IMG/VR virus record: IMGVR_UViG_2636416019_000001
Coordinates: 2,400-66,399 of that record
Origin: a virus
Taxonomy: Duplodnaviria; Caudoviricetes
Length of the DNA stretch: 64,000 nucleotides
Direction: 5' to 3' (one strand)
Shown here piece by piece: positions 3,326 to 31,212 of this stretch; position 1 is the stretch's first letter, and each line of letters starts with the position of its first letter. The notes under the pieces are model-generated. The model worked only from the letters and a program-made list of their open reading frames with translations, was not told the origin of the DNA and ran no database searches. Both the position numbers and the translations under genes were made by a program.

Positions 3326-4137
3326 GTTCGGCGTGGATGATCTCCTCCATTGGATGGATGGCACCGTGGTGGATTTCGATACCCGATGACACAAGAAGGT
3401 GTAGACAAAATCGGCGCTAAGACGGCGTAGCCACAGGCGTGCTTCGCCCAGCTTCTTCAAGCCGTTCAGGTTTCTTCAGAATTGTCTTCGAGACATGCGC
3501 GACCGCTCTGGATAGAGTGGTCCCGCTTGCCCGGCCAGGTGTGTTTACGATGGATTGCTGAACGGCCAACAGCTGGTCAGGGTGGGCGCCAATTTATCAG
3601 GCATTACGCCTGGTGATCTTGTGGCACCTTTGAATAATCCCTCGTTGAAAAACTCCGGAAGAGCGATGCGGCTCTGTCTGTTTATTGCCCTTGCGTTTAG
3701 CTGATCGCGCCTTCGCAGTTTGGCCTTTGGCCTGCCTCTTCGACTTCGCTGGCTCATGGGGTTAGTGGCTTCGCGATCCCTACGCTGGCTGGGCAAATCT
3801 GCCTTCGCCTATTCGGCAAGCTGCAAGCCTTTTAAAATCAGATGGTTACGCTGTTTTTGCTGTGCTAACCTATTGAAATATCTGGTTTTATCAGTGGAAT
3901 GCGGTTCTATCTGCGCCGGTTCGGTTCTGGCTGTTGCTCCCACTTATAAAAATAGCTCTGTAGATCGATGATTTACGGAGCCTTTTTGTTTTTTGGCCGC
4001 ACTCGACATCCAGTCTTGAATTTGACGCCAACGAACTTGCTTCAAGGGTAGGGGATGTATATATTTCACCCCCTTGTCGCAAGGCGCTGAAACGGCTCAA
4101 GCAATTCAAGCCTTTCAGATTGCAACACCGCGCTACC

Positions 4138-4224
4138 GCCCGAATGGCGAAACTGGTAGACGCATGGGACTTAAAATCCCCCGCTCGTAAGGGCGTGCCG
4201 GTTCGATTCCGGCTTCGGGCACCA
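4138..4224 (+). tRNA. tRNA-Leu(UAA)
   Basis: GCCCGAA...TTCGGGC-ACCA acceptor stem, GGGA-CTTAAAA-TCCC anticodon arm, long variable arm, GTTCGATT T loop. Confidence 0.97.
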
Positions 4225-13195: not shown

Positions 13196-13434
13196 AGTGA
13201 GTCCGCCATTTTTCGAAGGGCGCGGCGCTCGGCCAGGGTCAGCGGCCGTGGCTTTCGCTTGAGGACCGTTTCAGGGTCTACCCAGTCCCGTCGCGCAGGC
13301 TTGGGCTCCGGTCGAACAGGCGGCAACTCCTTGTATGTGCCACCGCGCCGCGTCCAGAAATCAGTCATTGCAGCAGCGATTCGATCAGACTCAGCTTGTT
13401 TCGCTCGTACTGTGTTGAGGTTGAGACTGATCAT
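13192..13434 (-). CDS. phage hypothetical protein
   Basis: 80 aa, overlapping start/stop with both neighbours. Confidence 0.7.
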   Translation of the reverse strand: MISLNLNTVRAKQAESDRIAAAMTDFWTRRGGTYKELPPVRPEPKPARRDWVDPETVLKRKPRPLTLAERRALRKMADSL

Positions 13435-14198
13435 GCTGCCTTACTCCTCAGCTTGGCCTCGTACTGATCGACTAGCAGCTTGAACTGCCAGAGGTCTTCC
13501 TCGAGCTTTTCGATGTAGTCGTCATCGCGCTTGAACTCTTGCAGCCAGAGCTGGCGGCCTACCGGCTTAAGAAGTGGGCAGTACATCCCGATGTGCCACC
13601 ACTTCTTTTCAGTGATCCACATACATCCCTGCACCTGGTCTATGACGTCGCTTGCATCGTTGTCGATGTGGAAGGCGCGGAGCTTGTCCGGAGCGAGGAA
13701 GCACTTGTACTCAGCGCCGCCATCCTCGCCGATGAAGCCGTCTGCGCTTGCGCCGAAAACTCCGTCGTCGGTTTTCACAAGTCCGACCTGATTCACAATG
13801 AGGCCGGTCTGAATTTCGTGCTCCATGCGCGCTTCCGGCTCCAGTTCGTGCCCCCGACGCATTTGCCAGGTCTCGAACCCTCCATCCAGCGGTGCGCCGC
13901 CGATTCGCTCAACGGCCAGCTCGAAGGCATAGGTCAGTGCGGCATTCGAAGGTTCGCCGACTTTCTCGCCATCTAGAGCGCGCTGCACGACTTCTGCCTT
14001 CGGTCCCGCCTTGTAGCCGGCCAAGTCGCGGGCTTTGCTTTCGCTATGGCCGGCCAGGATCGCGTCGACATACGTCCGCTGTTGGGCGGTGAGCCCATTC
14101 ACCTTTGAGCGGGCAGTGCTGAACATACTGGCGGTGATTACCCCGGCGCGGCCTTGCAGCCACTCAGCGGATCCTTGAGTGCAGCTGAGGACAATCAT
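13431..14198 (-). CDS. YqaJ/lambda-exonuclease family protein
   Basis: QGSAEWLQGRAGVITAS, RGHELEPEAR, GASADG, EYKC, QVQGCMW motifs. Confidence 0.92.
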   Translation of the reverse strand: MIVLSCTQGSAEWLQGRAGVITASMFSTARSKVNGLTAQQRTYVDAILAGHSESKARDLAGYKAGPKAEVVQRALDGEKVGEPSNAALTYAFELAVERIGGAPLDGGFETWQMRRGHELEPEARMEHEIQTGLIVNQVGLVKTDDGVFGASADGFIGEDGGAEYKCFLAPDKLRAFHIDNDASDVIDQVQGCMWITEKKWWHIGMYCPLLKPVGRQLWLQEFKRDDDYIEKLEEDLWQFKLLVDQYEAKLRSKAA

Positions 14199-14953
14199 TG
14201 TTTTGCCTCCAGTTCGTCTTTTCGCTTGGTGACTGCAATCTTCACCGTGTCGTAACCAACCTTGTCGCCACTGGCCTGCAGCACCTTCAGGGCTGCCTGC
14301 CACACATCCTTGAGTTCGTCGGGCGAGGCTGTCTGTCCAACCCGCTCGAGGATGTCCTCAATCACCTGGGATCGCATGTCCTCGCTGTCGGAGCCATCAG
14401 ATGTCTGGGCGTCATCGTCGCGGGTTTCGCTGGTGGTGATGTTCAGCAGCGCGCACATGACGTAGCGCTTGCCGTAGGTGGTAGATGAGCCAACCGCCTG
14501 TACTTCGTTTCGACCTTTGCCGATATCTGCCGGGAGAGTCATCGTGGTTTGCTCTCTATGTCCGTCGCGGTGCATCAGGATGCCGGTGACACTGATCGCC
14601 TTGTCGAGGTTTTCTACCTTGAAGGTGATCGCGAAACCGTGTCGCTGCATGATCGGCTTGATGATTCGCGTGATGTCGTCGAGGGTTGCGTAGGCGTTAC
14701 CAGTGTGAAGGTTCACAGCGGCTTCGAAGACCGTTGGTATCTCACACTGCATCTGGGCCATACCGGCGTTGAAGGCCGCTTCAGCGGCCTTGTCCTGCAT
14801 GCGTTCGTGCATGGCCAGCAGCCGTTCCATCTTTTCGATATCGCAGGACGGATCGGCGGCCGCGCGGCTGATGACCGCCATGATGCTGTTGTCCGTCGAG
14901 ATTGGCACTACAGCTTGCCGGCGCTGCTCCGGCATGATGATTTCGGTGGACAT
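14195..14953 (-). CDS. ERF-family single-strand annealing protein
   Basis: YATLDDI and QAVGSSTTYGKRY..DDDA signature. Confidence 0.9.
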   Translation of the reverse strand: MSTEIIMPEQRRQAVVPISTDNSIMAVISRAAADPSCDIEKMERLLAMHERMQDKAAEAAFNAGMAQMQCEIPTVFEAAVNLHTGNAYATLDDITRIIKPIMQRHGFAITFKVENLDKAISVTGILMHRDGHREQTTMTLPADIGKGRNEVQAVGSSTTYGKRYVMCALLNITTSETRDDDAQTSDGSDSEDMRSQVIEDILERVGQTASPDELKDVWQAALKVLQASGDKVGYDTVKIAVTKRKDELEAKQ

Positions 14954-17169: not shown

Positions 17170-17679
17170 TTAGGCGGCACGCGACTGGCGCCCGTGATTT
17201 GGGTGGAAGCCGAAGCTCAGCTCGGCAGACTTCCGCGCAGCGACTGCATCCAGCAAAGTGCCGAATGTGCCCAGAGTGATTAGGGTTCTATTTGCGCGAA
17301 TGCGGGCGGTGAAGTTGCCGTGCTTTTGATTGAACTGAATCCCAAGCACGCCGATTCGGTTTGCATCGCTCAGCGCGAGGTTTTTGTTGTTCTCTGCAGC
17401 CGTTACTGCCCGCAAGTTTTCAATTCGGTTGTCCAGCCTGTTTCCGTTGATGTGGTCAATGTGCATCCCATCCAGCAGTTCGCCGTGATGAAGACACCAG
17501 ATCACGCGGTGCACGTAGTACTGAACCTTGAACTTGTTCACGATTCGATAGCCATCAGGCCGAGGGCTGCCGGCTTCTTTGCCTTTGTTGAAACCGCCCG
17601 ACCAAAGAAGTTGGCCGTTGGCGTAGCTGAAGTATTCGGCGAGCTGGTGCTCTTTAAGGCGCATACGCTCTCCTGCCAT
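17170..17679 (-). CDS. HNH homing endonuclease with AP2-like C-terminus
   Basis: VHRVIW..IDHINGNRLDNRIENLR; LGTF..AVAARK. Confidence 0.9.
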   Translation of the reverse strand: MAGERMRLKEHQLAEYFSYANGQLLWSGGFNKGKEAGSPRPDGYRIVNKFKVQYYVHRVIWCLHHGELLDGMHIDHINGNRLDNRIENLRAVTAAENNKNLALSDANRIGVLGIQFNQKHGNFTARIRANRTLITLGTFGTLLDAVAARKSAELSFGFHPNHGRQSRAA

Positions 17680-17711
17680 GAGGCTAAGTGCGTTTGTCGG
17701 GGAGGGTGGGT

Positions 17712-17903
17712 GCAGATGGCCGGAGCTGATCCCGGCATGACTATTAGCGGCCTTAGTGACACCGGAGTTTCACCGGGGCGAAGGTTTCAGCCGCTTATTC
17801 TTGGACTCGCCGTGGCCATCTGGGCGCTTACTCACTCTACCAGCCACGATTCCCGCGATCCCTCAGGTCTTACACTTGCCCGTCAGTCCGGGCATTCATC
17901 TGC
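17712..17903 (-). ncRNA. putative structured RNA A (cloverleaf-like, kissing loops)
   Basis: closing stem GCAGATG/CATCTGC; hairpins GCCCG-GACTGA-CGGGC and GCCGG-GATCAGCT-CCGGC. Confidence 0.55.
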
Positions 17904-17948
17904 TTGTTGCGGTGATGCAGGTGGGCGGTTATAGGCCGCAGTTTCGTC

Positions 17949-18109
17949 CGCATCGGGGTGTGATCTAGCCGGTGCTGATCTCCGACTTGTTAGTCTGGTT
18001 GCTTTGCAGACTTTTAAACGGCGTCTTTTCAAGAGTTTCCCAAGCAACTGGGGCTGCTGTAGCCGCTATCAACGCATCAGCCTGCGTATTCAGATCACAC
18101 CCCGATGCG
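17949..18109 (-). ncRNA. putative structured RNA B (same architecture as A)
   Basis: perfect 18-bp closing stem; hairpins ACGCA-GGCTGA-TGCGT and GTCGG-AGATCAGCA-CCGGC. Confidence 0.6.
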
Positions 18110-18162
18110 CTCTCATAGAGAGGATCGGGCAGTTAACGACAGGCTGTCGTGGCGCTGGTTGT

Positions 18163-18942
18163 TCAGTCGTCGAACCCGTAAGAGAAATCGCTTTCCTCGC
18201 AGTCGATCAGCAGGACGGCTTCACCGAAATAAAGCGAAGCCAGGATGCGCTCCCATTTCGAGCGGATATTCATTTTGATCGAAACCTTTTTCGCGTCGAG
18301 CTGGGCGCTATACACCTTCCCGAATTCGACTTTCGGTCTCCAGTGGTCGCCGGTTTCGCGCTCACCTTCAACCATCACATGGATGTTGTGTTTAAGGCTG
18401 TAGTCGCTACGGCGCTCATTGCTGTAGCTGTACCGACTCCCACCTTCTGGCTGCGGATCGAAGTAGATGTGGTAGAACTTGTGAGAATGGCTGTCGTCTT
18501 CAATGATGCGGATTTCCGGGGCGCTCCATCGCTCGTCCGCAGCCTCTTCTTTGTGTTCATCAATGAATGCGTCGAGCAAATCCTTCAGCGAAATCTCACC
18601 TGTGAGCAGACCTTCACCGGTCAACACCTCAGTGATGGATGCGTCGGCCTGCTTCATGATTGCCGACTCCATGCCCGCTGCCTCCCAGCGCTCCCGCAAA
18701 GCATTGGCGATCAGTGCGTTGTAGCGCTGAAGCTCAAACATGTCGGTGACATTGGCCGGAAAGGCTTCCTTCACGGCCGTTTTTATTGACTCGCCGATGG
18801 TGCCATAAGATCTGAAGGCGTCTTCGACGACGCTTTTGAACATCTTGTCGATGCCCTCATCGATCAGCTCGCGAGGGCGATCAGACAGGGCGTAGGTGCT
18901 GACACGTTCGGCCAGCAGTTGCTGAAGCGTTTGTTCGCTCAT
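18163..18942 (-). CDS. phage hypothetical protein
   Basis: 259-aa ORF, GGAG RBS. Confidence 0.8.
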   Translation of the reverse strand: MSEQTLQQLLAERVSTYALSDRPRELIDEGIDKMFKSVVEDAFRSYGTIGESIKTAVKEAFPANVTDMFELQRYNALIANALRERWEAAGMESAIMKQADASITEVLTGEGLLTGEISLKDLLDAFIDEHKEEAADERWSAPEIRIIEDDSHSHKFYHIYFDPQPEGGSRYSYSNERRSDYSLKHNIHVMVEGERETGDHWRPKVEFGKVYSAQLDAKKVSIKMNIRSKWERILASLYFGEAVLLIDCEESDFSYGFDD

Positions 18943-19554: not shown

Positions 19555-19821
19555 TTTGTGACTCCCGTTGATTTCCAATGCCGCCTCCTCGAAGCGGCAT
19601 CAGTAAATCTTTGGTCTTTCTCCGCACCCGCTTACCAGGTCATTCACTCAGTTCGGTCAACACCTCGTCCGCCGTCGCAGTGGGCTGCGCGTGGGCAGGC
19701 TTTCGGGCCTGTCGGATCGCCGGTCGCCAGTAGAGGCAAGTGCGGTTTTGTTCATCGGTTTACTGACCTCCCACCGATGGAGCCGGGAGTGACCTAACCG
19801 GACTGGCCGGGTAGTCGTTCA

Positions 19822-19843
19822 TGGCGCTGGTTGTTAAAGAGCG
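19822..19843 (-). promoter_or_regulatory. boxA antitermination (nut-like) site
   Basis: CGCTCTTTA-ACAACCAGCGCCA on the minus strand just downstream of pL. Confidence 0.75.
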
Positions 19844-19886
19844 GCGCGGCTTTCGCTGCTGGGCCTGTGTCGTTGGCTTGGATGCA

Positions 19887-19928
19887 AATATAGGCACTCC
19901 CATATTTATCGTCAATGGGTATTCCCAT
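19887..19928 (-). promoter_or_regulatory. pL promoter with two repressor operators
   Basis: TTGACG-N17-TATATT; operators ATAGGCACTCCCAT (19890-19903) and ATGGGTATTCCCAT (19915-19928). Confidence 0.85.
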
Positions 19929-21109: not shown

Positions 21110-22024
21110 TCATTGAATTTTTTTCGGTGAATACATCGTGCCGATCTGTATGGCTTCGTCTTTCCCACCTTTGAGCATCGTTGCTTTTTTCAGTATGTAT
21201 TCTGGGAATTTAGTGACCAAGTAATCATATCTGAACCACCTACGAAACTCAGCTAAGGCGTGGTTTGGGTATGCGCTGGCTTCTTGCGGATTGCTCTTGG
21301 ACTGCGGATATCTTGCCGGATAGTTGTGCTGACAAGGGACCCGATCGCCAAAAATCGAGGAATAATTGAATTCTTTCCAATGCTTAGCCCACATCTGGCC
21401 AACGCTAATATCTGGGATGGTTTTGTGGTTGACAGTCAGGTCGGCGTTAATCAAGTCCACGATCAGGCCCGTTATCTCATTGAAAACTATGAAATAGCCT
21501 ATGGGGGCCGCGTTATTGAGGATTGAAACCCTTTCGTGGTGGAACTGCCATCTGTCCCCTGGGGTATAGTTAAGCGAGTCATAGATAAACTTTTGCAGAC
21601 CGTAGGCTGCAAAACTTCTGTAGCTATCGATGGCTACTTGGTTCGTCGTACGGGACTCAAACGCATAGAACTCCAGGATGGCCATGCACACGATGTCTGG
21701 ATAGGCATAGTGAGGACTCCCATCTCGCATGGTTTCAATGTAAAGCTTTCGATCTGTGAAGCCTCTTTCCGACAGATACTGTTTAACGAAAGAGATCCTG
21801 TCTTTCGTAAGGACTTCGTCGTCGAAGTGATCTTCCCATTCCTGGGTAATGTCCTGAATTGCGCTGCGATGGGCGCCAGTTACTAGCGCCAGGCCGCGTT
21901 GCGTTAGAAAGGGGATGCCGTTTTCTAGAACCCCCATTTCGATGCCGTTTACGTCTCTCTGCACCTCAACCCCAAGGTCAAGCGCAATCTGTTTTGAGGT
22001 GGCCTTCAGTGAACCGTCTTTCAT
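21110..22024 (-). CDS. bstA: BstA-family abortive-infection phage defence protein
   Basis: MGVLENGIPFLTQRGLA, HYAYPDIVCMAILEFYAF, IPDISVG..WA.HWK and YP..ALAEFRRW match recalled Salmonella BTP1 BstA motifs; about 304 aa; downstream of cI. Confidence 0.85.
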   Translation of the reverse strand: MKDGSLKATSKQIALDLGVEVQRDVNGIEMGVLENGIPFLTQRGLALVTGAHRSAIQDITQEWEDHFDDEVLTKDRISFVKQYLSERGFTDRKLYIETMRDGSPHYAYPDIVCMAILEFYAFESRTTNQVAIDSYRSFAAYGLQKFIYDSLNYTPGDRWQFHHERVSILNNAAPIGYFIVFNEITGLIVDLINADLTVNHKTIPDISVGQMWAKHWKEFNYSSIFGDRVPCQHNYPARYPQSKSNPQEASAYPNHALAEFRRWFRYDYLVTKFPEYILKKATMLKGGKDEAIQIGTMYSPKKIQ

Positions 22025-22071
22025 ATCTATCTCCTTGATATATAACAATATTCACCCGGCCACCAATAGGC

Positions 22072-23284: not shown

Positions 23285-23950
23285 CTAGTAGAACTTCTGC
23301 AGAGCCTGCACCACGACGCCCACAATCCGGCAGTTCTCGTCGACCGGCTCGATCGGGTAACCAGGATTCAACGGCTTCAAGAACAGTCTGCCGCCATCGC
23401 TCACCAGCTTCTTGAACGTCGCCTCATTGCTGTCTGGCAGCTTGGCCACGACCAATTTGCCTGGAGAGACCTCCACCTCGGTATCGACCAGAATCAACGT
23501 TCCTTCCGTGATGCTCTGGCCGGCAGGGGCGGTCATCGAATCGCCTTTGACTTTCAGCCAGAACGCCGGGCCTTTCGAGTCGTATTCGGAAAACTCGTAG
23601 GTGTCGGAAATTCCGGCCGGGTAGGGCTCCACAGCCTCTGCCCAGGCGCCGGCGGCGACCCAGCTGATGACGGGGTATCGGAAGGACCGGGATGGTTGGA
23701 CGGCCATCGAGACATTGGACTCAGCCGGTCCGCTCCCCGCGGTCGATGTCATTGGGCCGATCTCATCTGACAGCCACTTGGCACTCACACCGCAAGCGTC
23801 AGCAATCTTTACAACGTGCGCAGTCGCTTTCGACTTCCCGCGCTCGAGGTCAGAAATCGATGTTTGCGTGATACCCGCCTTGGCGGCCAGTTCAGCCTGG
23901 TTGAGCTGCGCGTGCCGGCGTGCGGCTTTTAAACGGTCTTTGAATTCCAT
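23285..23950 (-). CDS. cI: CI-like repressor (HTH_3 + S24 peptidase)
   Basis: LNQAELAAKAGITQTSISDLERG HTH; AG cleavage site (VAAG), GDSM serine, TFKKL lysine. Confidence 0.95.
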   Translation of the reverse strand: MEFKDRLKAARRHAQLNQAELAAKAGITQTSISDLERGKSKATAHVVKIADACGVSAKWLSDEIGPMTSTAGSGPAESNVSMAVQPSRSFRYPVISWVAAGAWAEAVEPYPAGISDTYEFSEYDSKGPAFWLKVKGDSMTAPAGQSITEGTLILVDTEVEVSPGKLVVAKLPDSNEATFKKLVSDGGRLFLKPLNPGYPIEPVDENCRIVGVVVQALQKFY

Positions 23951-23956
23951 TGCGGG

Positions 23957-24024
23957 AGTATTACGGGCGCTCCCATATCCTTGCAAATCGGTATTCCCAT
24001 AACCTACTATATGGGTATTCCCGT
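23957..24024. promoter_or_regulatory. OR region: three operators, pR and pRM
   Basis: ACGGGCGCTCCCAT (23963), ATCGGTATTCCCAT (23987), ATGGGTATTCCCGT (24011) at 24-bp pitch; TTGCAA-N18-TACTAT. Confidence 0.85.
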
Positions 24025-24037
24025 ATGGAGGGGCATC

Positions 24038-24253
24038 ATGAACGCAATATACAAGGGCCTCGTTGACTATTTCGGCACGCAGGAGGCCACCGCCGAAAAG
24101 CTCAAGGTTGATCAAAGCACCGTTTCCGGATGGGTTCGGGGGAAGCACGGCATGTCTCCAGTTATTGCCAAGCGAGCGGAGGCGTTGACCGAAGGTGCTT
24201 TCAAAAAAGAATCCCTATGTCCGTCGTTTCCTTGGGCCGAAATGGCCGCCTGA
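24038..24253 (+). CDS. cro: Cro-like regulator
   Basis: 71-aa HTH (GTQEATAEKLKVDQSTVSGW), divergent from cI. Confidence 0.9.
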   Translation: MNAIYKGLVDYFGTQEATAEKLKVDQSTVSGWVRGKHGMSPVIAKRAEALTEGAFKKESLCPSFPWAEMAA

Positions 24254-30907: not shown

Positions 30908-31212
30908 TCCGCAAGAAACCATCCACCGTACCCAGGGCGGCCCTCGGGAACACCTGGGCACTGATAAGCCGGCAAGTGCAGTGCTACGAGAAAACTCCGG
31001 CAGCCCGCGCACCCTGACCTCACATGCTTTCAGGGTGGCGCGAGGCCTGAGCGGCGAGACCGATGCAGCAGGGTGTCGGCGCAGCGATGGCTACGGCAGA
31101 CGGCGGGAAAGACCGCGCACCTATTCAGGGCCTCAGCATTCGCTGGGGCCTTTTTGTTTTGGGCAATGCCCGGGCCAACGCAGGCCCTTTTTTATCCCCA
31201 TGGAGACACCTA

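Follow-up and report, generated by a model that had tools for sequence, protein, structure and literature searches.

Tandem tRNA-shaped elements with complementary hairpin loops and exchangeable inserts in a Pseudomonas prophage

What does a prophage carry in a part of its early region where no gene for a protein is found? The question is raised by a 66-kb provirus of the IMG/VR collection, of which a stretch of 64,000 nucleotides (nt), here called the window, was analysed. The closest DNA matches of the provirus are Pseudomonas phages, and it is a Pseudomonas lambdoid prophage. Between two open reading frames (ORFs) of the minus strand, 18163-18942 and 17170-17679, lies a non-coding gap of 483 nt, and within this gap are two elements, A and B, which share the same plan of a closing stem, two hairpins and an insert between them. 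A preliminary description, made from the sequence alone, had placed two such minus-strand elements in a gene-free gap of ~480 base pairs (bp), and both are present as described. Comparison with other genomes places A and B in a family of structured elements in which the stems and the two hairpin loops covary, the strand is that of the surrounding operon, and the insert, or cargo, is exchanged between copies.

Architecture of the two elements

The family plan runs from a closing stem through a linker, AAU, a hairpin with the loop GGCUGA, an insert of 19-188 nt and a hairpin with the loop AGAUCAGCA back to the closing stem. The plan was sought with a structural parser and with R1, a covariance model with three stems that was made from 32 aligned elements of other genomes, none of them from the window. 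Both A and B are members of the kissing-loop cloverleaf family that R1 defines (loops GRCUGA and (U)CAGC). The parser detects the two of them, and R1 finds element B at full length (cmsearch, 48.6 bits, E=2.3e-10). Element A is found by R1 only as two partial matches (E=5e-4 and 2e-3) because of its long insert. The parts of element A are:

17712-17903, minus: element A, kissing-loop scaffold (parser match and two partial R1 matches)
17897-17903 with 17712-17718, minus: closing stem of A, 7 bp, GCAGATG/CATCTGC
17894-17896, minus: linker AAU of A
17878-17893, minus: hairpin 1 of A, GCCCG-GACTGA-CGGGC, loop GACUGA
17737-17877, minus: cargo A, 141 nt
17719-17736, minus: hairpin 2 of A, GCCGG-GATCAGCT-CCGGC, loop GAUCAGCU
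17708-17711, minus: A-CCC directly 3' of the 7-bp stem of A

Those of element B are:

17949-18109, minus: element B as a whole, with its 18-bp outer (holder) stem
17961-18097, minus: kissing-loop scaffold of B with the inner closing stem (full-length R1 match and parser match)
18092-18109, minus: 5' arm of the holder stem, CGCATCGGGGTGTGATCT
17949-17966, minus: 3' arm of the holder stem, AGATCACACCCCGATGCG
18088-18091, minus: G18091, followed by the linker AAU (18088-18090)
18072-18087, minus: hairpin 1 of B, ACGCA-GGCTGA-TGCGT, with the loop GGCUGA at 18077-18082
17987-18071, minus: cargo B, 85 nt
17968-17986, minus: hairpin 2 of B, GTCGG-AGATCAGCA-CCGGC, with the loop AGAUCAGCA at 17973-17981

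The outer stem of B is a perfect helix of 18 bp (18092-18109 with 17949-17966). The loops of the two hairpins are complementary in each element, GCUGA to UCAGC in B and CUGA to UCAG in A, and the two interiors are unrelated, there being no match between cargo A and cargo B in a BLAST search against all loci; on both points the preliminary description holds. The A-CCC that follows element A resembles a discriminator base with CC, a likeness that is suggestive only. The fold z-score of the whole region, -2.15, is weak alone, and it is the comparative evidence, not the thermodynamic fold, that carries the case for the elements being real.

Within cargo A, at 17780-17806 on the minus strand, the stretch GAAUAAGCGGCUGAAACC resembles the scaffold linker with the hairpin-1 loop. 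It perhaps remains from a scaffold that was nested or duplicated here, and it is because of this stretch that R1 splits element A into two matches.

Covariation of the stems

A covariance model was among the checks that the preliminary description had proposed, and its outcome favours that description: both the stems and the pairing of the loops covary in other genomes. Two sets of loci were compared. The IMG/VR set comprised 100 of the 117 new loci of a second IMG/VR scan and was gathered through hairpin 2. It gave 66 R1 matches in which 98.2% of the cells are paired; 15 of the 22 pairs change on both sides, including all seven pairs of the closing stem and all five of hairpin 1. None of 500 shuffles reached the observed values, and slid partners were paired in 19-50%. 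The genome set, gathered through hairpin 1, comprised 100 of 120 loci and gave 101 R1 matches with 97.9% of the cells paired; both sides change in six of the seven closing-stem pairs and in all five pairs of hairpin 2. The 20 loci left out of this set were 16 in which the parser saw no second hairpin, mostly one Xanthomonadales-like match of the search 20-mer in a coding gene, and four true elements (L363, L365, L366 and L367).

In the stems of both sets together there are 60 G.U or U.G pairs against 10 A.C or C.A, and this ratio therefore fits an RNA of this strand. The elements are co-oriented with the flanking operons in the window, in Escherichia coli prophages and in phage P1. Their lengths of 70-243 nt fall into the three classes modulo 3 without preference (64, 45 and 51), which shows that the elements are not coding. 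Four candidates judged false by eye (L018, L221, L329 and L348) were excluded from the counts of stem length, element length and loops, and were kept in the count of neighbouring tRNA genes given below.

Pairing between the two loops

In most copies both loops are conserved and hence uninformative about pairing, so IMG/VR was scanned for elements with changed hairpin-1 loops. The scan gave 46 loci, of which 32 were analysed, 14 duplicates of two coding-type matches having been dropped. Where hairpin 1 has the loop GGCCGA, hairpin 2 has CGG(C/U) in six distinct elements (L093, L375, L377, L380, L381 and L383) and the usual CAG in one (L049); where hairpin 1 has GGCUGA, hairpin 2 has CAG in 133 cases and CGG in one. 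The contrast gives 5e-9 in Fisher's test, a value that overstates the independence of the data because the six compensated copies may go back to a single event or to very few. GCCGA:UCGGC is the compensated form of GCUGA:UCAGC. A loop GGUUGA is likewise compensated by UCAAC in L401 and faces a wobble-compatible UCAGC in L402 and L417, and in L105 one base is gone from each loop, leaving GCGA with UCGC. The loops thus covary, and their covariation points to a Watson-Crick kissing helix of 4-6 bp between the two hairpins.

Exchange of the cargo

The interior of the elements had been called interchangeable, and this is what the comparison shows: a given cargo is found in more than one closing stem and slot, and a given slot can hold unlike cargos. 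Sequences related to cargo A are found in 14 other loci (BLAST against all loci), in 12 of them at 75-99% identity. They occupy slot A in five loci, the slot on the holder stem in three, and other closing stems in three, one of which is in a Pelagibacterium metagenome-assembled genome (MAG); one further copy has 75% identity. Two more loci share a 32-nt core of cargo A, with 100% identity in the case of a Kluyvera contig and 97% in the other. By eye, the internal hairpins of cargo A show compensatory changes between copies. Cargo B had no relatives in a BLAST search against all fetched loci. In contigs of other strains the same stem flanks enclose other cargos of different length. These comparisons argue that the cargo is functional and not filler.

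Likeness to tRNA

The order of parts is that of a transfer RNA (tRNA): a four-way junction with a terminal stem, a short linker, a first hairpin of 16 nt, a central arm and a final hairpin set directly against the terminal stem. Two parts differ from tRNA, in that the contact at the elbow is replaced by Watson-Crick pairing between loops and the anticodon stem-loop (5 bp with a 7-nt loop) is replaced by inserts of 19-188 nt, those of the window being 85 and 141 nt. A direct link with tRNA comes from the cargo of the type found in phage HK620. In 29 of 33 central bases it agrees with the replacement of the anticodon arm in a Kuttervirus gene that is annotated as tRNA-OTHER or tRNA-Leu and directly follows tRNA-Tyr and tRNA-Ser; its acceptor stem, D arm and T arm are those of a normal tRNA. 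A pairwise alignment matches the 16-nt D arm of the Kuttervirus gene to the likewise 16-nt hairpin 1, and the T arm to hairpin 2. Since the shared cargo sits at the same position, a true tRNA body and the kissing-loop scaffold can each present it. The earlier reading of a tRNA-like shape is well supported by this homology between the cargo and the segment that stands in for the anticodon arm of the Kuttervirus gene. As tRNAs proper the elements do not qualify: their loops have no D-loop or T-loop consensus, an anticodon arm is lacking, and tRNA finders miss them.

The commonest length of the closing stem is 7 bp (48 of 154 elements), followed by 8-10 bp, and many copies have 8-22 bp. CC stands at 3' positions 9-10, which are the second and third bases after a 7-bp stem, in 44 of the 154, and CCA at positions 9-11 in 8 of the 48 with a stem of exactly 7 bp; the HK620 element has G-CCA after its 7-bp stem. 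The family is associated with phage tRNA genes and with long phage operons. Of 164 candidate elements, 12 have a tRNA gene no more than 500 nt away, in each case on the strand of the element; random placement puts 4.8 +/- 1.8 candidates near a tRNA gene, with a maximum of 10 in 200 trials.

Two further observations concern tRNA-like sequences at these loci. Pseudomonas phage Medea1 has a genuine tRNA-Met (2083-2160 of L008) in the same non-coding gap as a holder hairpin, the cargo of which contains a hairpin with CUCGUAA, resembling an anticodon loop. In L105, from a Pseudomonas phage contig, and L296, from a Geobacteraceae MAG, the cargo of the scaffold contains a nested tRNA-like unit with a D arm and a T arm, and the two units are 83% identical.

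The holder stem and the Pseudomonas-phage module

When nine Pseudomonas phage records were compared, the outer stem of element B and its flanks emerged as a conserved module. It consists, in order, of a leader with two small hairpins, a long stem, a variable top, which is the cargo, and a further small hairpin. In the window its parts outside element B are:

18110-18162, minus: leader of the module, beginning right after the stop codon of the upstream gene
18136-18150, minus: hairpin H1, ACGACAG-C-CTGTCGT
18110-18122, minus: hairpin H2, CTCTC-TAT-GAGAG
17925-17939, minus: hairpin H3, GCGG-CCTATAA-CCGC, in the conserved spacer between elements B and A

The leader begins at the stop codon of different upstream genes in seven of the nine phage records; the exceptions are Aurca01 and Orimi01, the latter having the 3' part of the leader alone. 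The leader pattern matches at least 120 stretches of IMG/VR. H1 and H2 change compensatorily between phages, as judged by eye, and H3 is replaced by CCGC-GAAA-GCGG in other phages. The base of the long stem is always GCATCGG/CCGATGC, and the cargo on top is entirely different between phages. With at least 14 of 18 pairs required, the holder hairpin is present in 114 of 136 occurrences of the leader, with 64 distinct pairs of arms. Each of its positions 9-18 covaries, with 4-6 standard pair types, and positions 8-18 are jointly 93% paired, against 59% +/- 2% when shuffled. The 18-bp stem of element B represents a second, nested family of covarying hairpins that is specific to Pseudomonas phages. 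Among the cargos of 106 distinct holder hairpins, sorted by crude motif classes, 12 are of the kissing-loop type, 13 have a T-loop-type GTTCGA and 81 are others. Two of the 13 GTTCGA cargos have a motif resembling a D arm, and ARAGORN calls one of these two a tRNA of undetermined type.

Distribution of the family

When contigs of IMG/VR were searched with a hairpin-2 pattern and the structural parser, 71 distinct copies emerged, and they have a wide variety of closing stems. An exact 20-mer covering the linker and hairpin 1 occurs in at least 120 genome contigs, about 16 of 120 being an unrelated match in a coding gene. Copies extend across the Pseudomonadota, and the genera include enterobacteria (Kosakonia, Citrobacter, Klebsiella, Enterobacter, Erwinia and Pantoea), then Pseudomonas, Xanthomonas, Stenotrophomonas, Burkholderia, Cupriavidus, Massilia and Thauera, and further Rhizobium, Methylobacterium, Pelagibacterium, Desulfocarbo and a Geobacteraceae MAG, together with a few MAGs of other phyla; wrong binning may account for the single MAG contigs labelled Flavobacterium, Coriobacteriia and Phycisphaerales. 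The family is also found in T1-like Klebsiella phages and in many Pseudomonas phages.

A 161-nt query bearing an element of Pseudocitrobacter matches, at least in part, 1043 of 5426 complete E. coli genomes, or about a fifth; the matches fall at 988 chromosomal and 246 plasmid places, and in the 25 that were listed the matched stretch has no annotated feature. The copies in E. coli HS, O26:H11 11368 and CE10 are flanked by the gene for the Q antiterminator and the holin gene and share the strand of the late operon; phage HK620 has an identical copy. No element was found in the DLP12 prophage of E. coli K-12 (571-581 kb). The plasmid matches are mostly in non-mobilizable replicons of ~90-105 kb, and they are taken to be P1-like because the P1-like phage RCS47 has two copies. 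In phage P1 itself (NC_005856) the element is at 69819-69916 (19820-19917 of the fetched locus L420; 71.4 bits), in the C1-controlled ban operon and on the strand of the tRNA genes. It lies downstream of trnA and trnT and overlaps, in the antisense direction, the hypothetical ORFs annotated as plp and upl, and these two ORF calls may be mistaken.

Other features were seen next to these copies. In P1 an element with a 10-bp stem and a hairpin GGGTTCGAATCCC stands right after trnT, upstream of the kissing-loop element, and remnants of additional scaffolds follow the latter. In the Pseudocitrobacter locus (L256) the small RNA (sRNA) isrJ (RF01393, 58.9 bits, 3517-3593) is on the same strand ~100 nt upstream of the kissing-loop element. 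In Halomonas olivaria TYRC17 (L312, ~1066-1164) one spacer of a type I-E-like array of clustered regularly interspaced short palindromic repeats (CRISPR) includes the scaffold 20-mer, the repeat GTTCCCCGCAGGCGCGGGGATGAACCG standing on both sides; the host has therefore acquired immunity against a phage through the conserved element.

Gene context of the window

The genes that set the position of the elements are:

18163-18942, minus: upstream gene, phrog_2600, function not assigned
17170-17679, minus: downstream gene, homing-type endonuclease HNH_3 (Pfam PF13392, E=9e-20; phrog_99, E=3e-56)
23285-24148, minus: cI-like repressor
13431-14953, minus: Erf and exonuclease

Genes resembling CII and O are on the plus strand to the right of the repressor. 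This layout fits a leftward early, pL-like operon that includes the gap, and it agrees with the placement of the elements in the pL transcript by the preliminary description. No sigma-70-like promoter was found within the gap, and the three terminator-like matches all lie outside it. The HNH_3 gene directly follows element A, and in phage phi1 (L005) the 924-nt gap after its element also contains, as judged by eye, an unannotated HNH-like ORF. Conserved RNA genes of the kissing-loop type may be targets of homing endonucleases.

The same operon carries, ~3 kb upstream of the elements, a BstA-like abortive-infection gene (21110-22048, minus; phrog_6287, E=4e-115). On the plus strand of the window there are a structured phage RNA, Proteo-phage-1 (RF03044, 75.4 bits, 30926-31005), downstream of the prophage replication genes, and, at 4138-4224, tRNA-Leu(taa), the only tRNA of the window; it stands near the left end of the provirus record and may mark the site of integration.

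Search for a known RNA family

The preliminary description had named a search of Rfam as a check, and cmscan against Rfam 15 found no matching family on the elements. Over the whole window at the gathering score it reported only Proteo-phage-1 and tRNA-Leu, and over 17300-18500, taken to E<=10, only SNOR75 and PVT1_7 at chance level. Nothing was found on the elements of nine phage loci (E<=1; this search missed the tRNA-Met of Medea1 that ARAGORN sees) or of three E. coli loci, and no family on the elements or cargos of 18 genome loci at the gathering score. The motif was not found described in the literature searched, in which four sequence strings of 16-17 nt were included and from which subscription journals and supplements were out of reach. 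The sRNA Pas, which is restricted to Escherichia and Shigella according to the available part of its report (10.64898/2026.05.13.724894), is unrelated. The family is apparently unannotated and very widespread among phage-borne structured RNAs.

Proposed explanation and its alternatives

We propose, giving it an even chance, that the elements are non-coding RNA genes of the leftward early transcript in which a tRNA-like scaffold, excised from that transcript, carries an exchangeable payload acting in trans. In the fold the terminal stem, most often of 7-10 bp, takes the position of the acceptor stem and is followed by the 3-nt linker AAU and by a 16-nt hairpin at the position of the D arm. The variable structured insert takes the place of the anticodon arm, and a hairpin of 17-19 nt, abutting the terminal stem, that of the T arm. 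The kissing helix GCUGA-UCAGC replaces the contact between D loop and T loop at the elbow. The conserved scaffold would serve as a module for folding and stability and would probably be recognised by tRNA-processing enzymes; the Pseudomonas variant, set in an outer stem of 18-25 bp, would probably be recognised by RNase III too. By either route a small stable RNA would be cut from the polycistronic phage transcript, and its insert, the functional payload, would act in trans during lytic growth on a partner in the host or in a rival phage. Of all this, the family with its structure, covariation and strand, the exchange of cargos, the equivalence to a tRNA body proper and the link to phage tRNA genes and to long operons are shown by the comparisons, and transcription from pL, excision, stability and any action of the cargo in trans are inferred. 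A bolder reading, possible but one against which we lean, extends this to a so far unrecognised class of phage RNAs present across phyla: a natural display scaffold with a Watson-Crick kissing elbow, cut from operons by host enzymes that process tRNA or double-stranded RNA and carrying payloads for conflicts between phage and host or between phages. The payloads would then be aptamers, decoys or antisense segments that are rapidly exchanged, and the scaffold would have gone unnoticed even in model phages, P1 and HK620 among them.

A number of points weigh against the proposed explanation. ARAGORN and the Rfam tRNA model (RF00005, to E<=10) find nothing at 17712-18109. The loops, GGCUGA or GACUGA in hairpin 1 and AGAUCAGCA or GAUCAGCU in hairpin 2, match neither the D-loop nor the T-loop (GTTCRANYC) consensus, and a kissing helix of 5 bp need not yield a tRNA-like elbow, so that it is uncertain whether RNase P would recognise the elements. 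In 101 of 154 elements the closing stem exceeds 7 bp, a length that would bury an RNase P site, and a tRNA gene is near only 12 of the 164 candidates. Some changed loops are uncompensated, namely that of L049, GGCUUA in L385, L386 and L387, and GGAUGA in L394, L395 and L416. The alignments behind the pairing counts were fitted to the structure of R1, which favours pairing somewhat and affects the number of pair types, the slide control and the excess of G.U less; the loci were gathered by patterns that fix hairpin 1 or hairpin 2, and only the parts left unfixed are informative in each set. In the holder stem A.C pairs (44) are not rarer than G.U pairs (34), because of recurrent A.C at positions 5 and 8; these positions are recurrently C.A (13 of 64) and A.C (18 of 64) in the relatives and are both paired in the window (18103-18105, 18102). 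Either a mismatch is conserved at these positions or the recurrent A.C indicates a role for the other strand. Finally, one RNA run is certain for the region (0.29 of the sampled words), in the form of contigs only, which have a different cargo and yield neither starts nor ends nor a depth that could speak for an RNA species; the stretches they leave uncovered say nothing either way.

The main rival is a purely cis-acting signal, in which the elements would punctuate long phage transcripts for processing or stability through RNase P, RNase Z or RNase III and the insert would have no function. A precedent is the punctuation of mitochondrial transcripts by tRNAs. Such a signal would explain why every element sits within a long operon of its own orientation (early-left in the window, the late leader from Q to holin in E. 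coli prophages, ban in P1), why those of the window have no promoter or terminator of their own in the gap, and why the scaffold is far better conserved than the insert. It does not explain why families of cargos are conserved across genera with compensatory changes of their own, or why the same cargo is retained across a true tRNA body and the kissing scaffold; a neutral filler is unlikely because the cargo is kept across bodies and genera with such changes, and we consider this reading unlikely as a whole. The other readings fit the data less well. That the elements work in the DNA, where their inverted ends and hairpins would make them a small mobile cassette or a linker for recombination, would agree with near-identical 20-mers across phyla, with copies in tandem and at different genome positions, with replacement of the cargo between strains exactly at the stem boundaries, with the homing endonuclease gene that adjoins the elements here, and with a Pseudomonas module that begins exactly at the stop codons of unrelated genes. 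The terminal stems covary freely, however, unlike the conserved ends of transposons; G.U far exceeds A.C, which is relevant only to an RNA of this strand; the covariation between loops has no rationale in DNA; and all 12 neighbouring tRNA genes are on the same strand. A purely DNA-level role is thus very improbable, and mobility of an RNA gene as a cassette is compatible with the proposed explanation.

Two further readings keep an RNA and change its task. Purine riboswitches contain kissing-loop junctions, and the elements occur in the leaders of early and late operons, so that they might be cis-regulatory, either antitermination sites resembling put or nut or a kissing-loop riboswitch. Their inserts, however, vary tenfold in size and are unrelated between copies, the element of E. 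coli HS lies, by eye, downstream of a terminator-like hairpin that follows Q, those of the window lie ~4 kb from the repressor-proximal end of the leftward operon, and no riboswitch or leader family of Rfam was matched; of all the readings this is the one we would least expect to hold. Hardly better placed is a platform for a ribonucleoprotein, on the pattern of Y RNA with Ro or of transfer-messenger RNA (tmRNA) with SmpB, which would not be a substrate of tRNA enzymes and to which we allow only a small chance. In its favour, the sequences of loops and hairpins are near-invariant across phyla, more so than pairing demands, and Y RNAs likewise join a long terminal stem to a tRNA-like domain, as the available part of PMC4201824 describes. 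On the other side, the TROVE/Ro gene (PF05731) has no match in the 66-kb provirus record, the YrlA and tmRNA families of Rfam are not matched and ARAGORN reports no tmRNA, and the layout of YrlA is the opposite one according to the same source (PMC4201824, as available), the T arm preceding the D arm and the long stem being at the anticodon position.

Comparison with known systems

The closest parallel to the proposed RNA genes is with the species 1 and 2 RNAs of phage T4 (rnaC and rnaD), which stand in tandem at the end of a cluster of phage tRNA genes that has the homing endonuclease gene segB within it. This layout is paralleled by that of P1, where tRNA-Asn, tRNA-Thr, the long-stem element and the kissing-loop element follow one another, and by the tandem pair with its HNH gene in the window. 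The T4 RNAs are reportedly cut by tRNA-processing enzymes. They differ from A and B in that R1 has no match in the tRNA region of T4 at E<=1 and the loop pair GGCUGA/AUCAGC is absent from them; by eye, rnaC has a canonical T arm. The function of rnaC and rnaD is described as still unknown in the available part of PMC9697503.

The elements resemble tmRNA in that a large, variable interior occupies the place of the anticodon arm in a tRNA-like body. That they are tmRNA was rejected, since ARAGORN finds none, the tmRNA families of Rfam are unmatched at 17300-18500 (E<=10) and window-wide, and the T-like loop is non-canonical. They share with YrlA, which occurs in some phages according to the available part of PMC4201824, a long terminal stem and a domain that mimics tRNA. 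As members of the Y RNA/YrlA class they were rejected as well: their order is D-like hairpin, cargo, T-like hairpin, no Rfam family matches, and the provirus record has no Ro gene. A retron msr-msd RNA was rejected on its surroundings, the neighbours being an HNH endonuclease and phrog_2600 and the reverse transcriptase domain PF00078 having no match in the provirus record.

The preliminary description had likened the elements to the C4 RNA of P1 and the CI RNA of P4, small phage immunity RNAs that come from longer transcripts. These two are processed by RNase P. An identification with C4 antisense RNA was rejected, as cmscan gave no C4-type match to E<=10 over 17300-18500, and the kissing-loop element of P1 (69819-69916, ban operon) is outside what we take to be the immunity region.

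If the family is undescribed, as the searches suggest, it would be among the most widespread unannotated structured RNAs of the phages of proteobacteria. Its architecture is a fold of the tRNA type in which the elbow is turned into a kissing helix and the anticodon arm into exchangeable structured inserts. It offers a handle on the non-tRNA RNAs of phage tRNA clusters, a question that has been open since the species 1 and 2 RNAs of T4, and it bears on whether phages deploy RNA payloads on a common scaffold in conflicts with their hosts. In engineered tRNA scaffolds a tRNA-shaped body protects an arbitrary insert and presents it at the anticodon arm. Those are laboratory constructs, whereas the design seen here appears to be natural and has a kissing-loop elbow; it thereby offers RNA engineering a natural scaffold.

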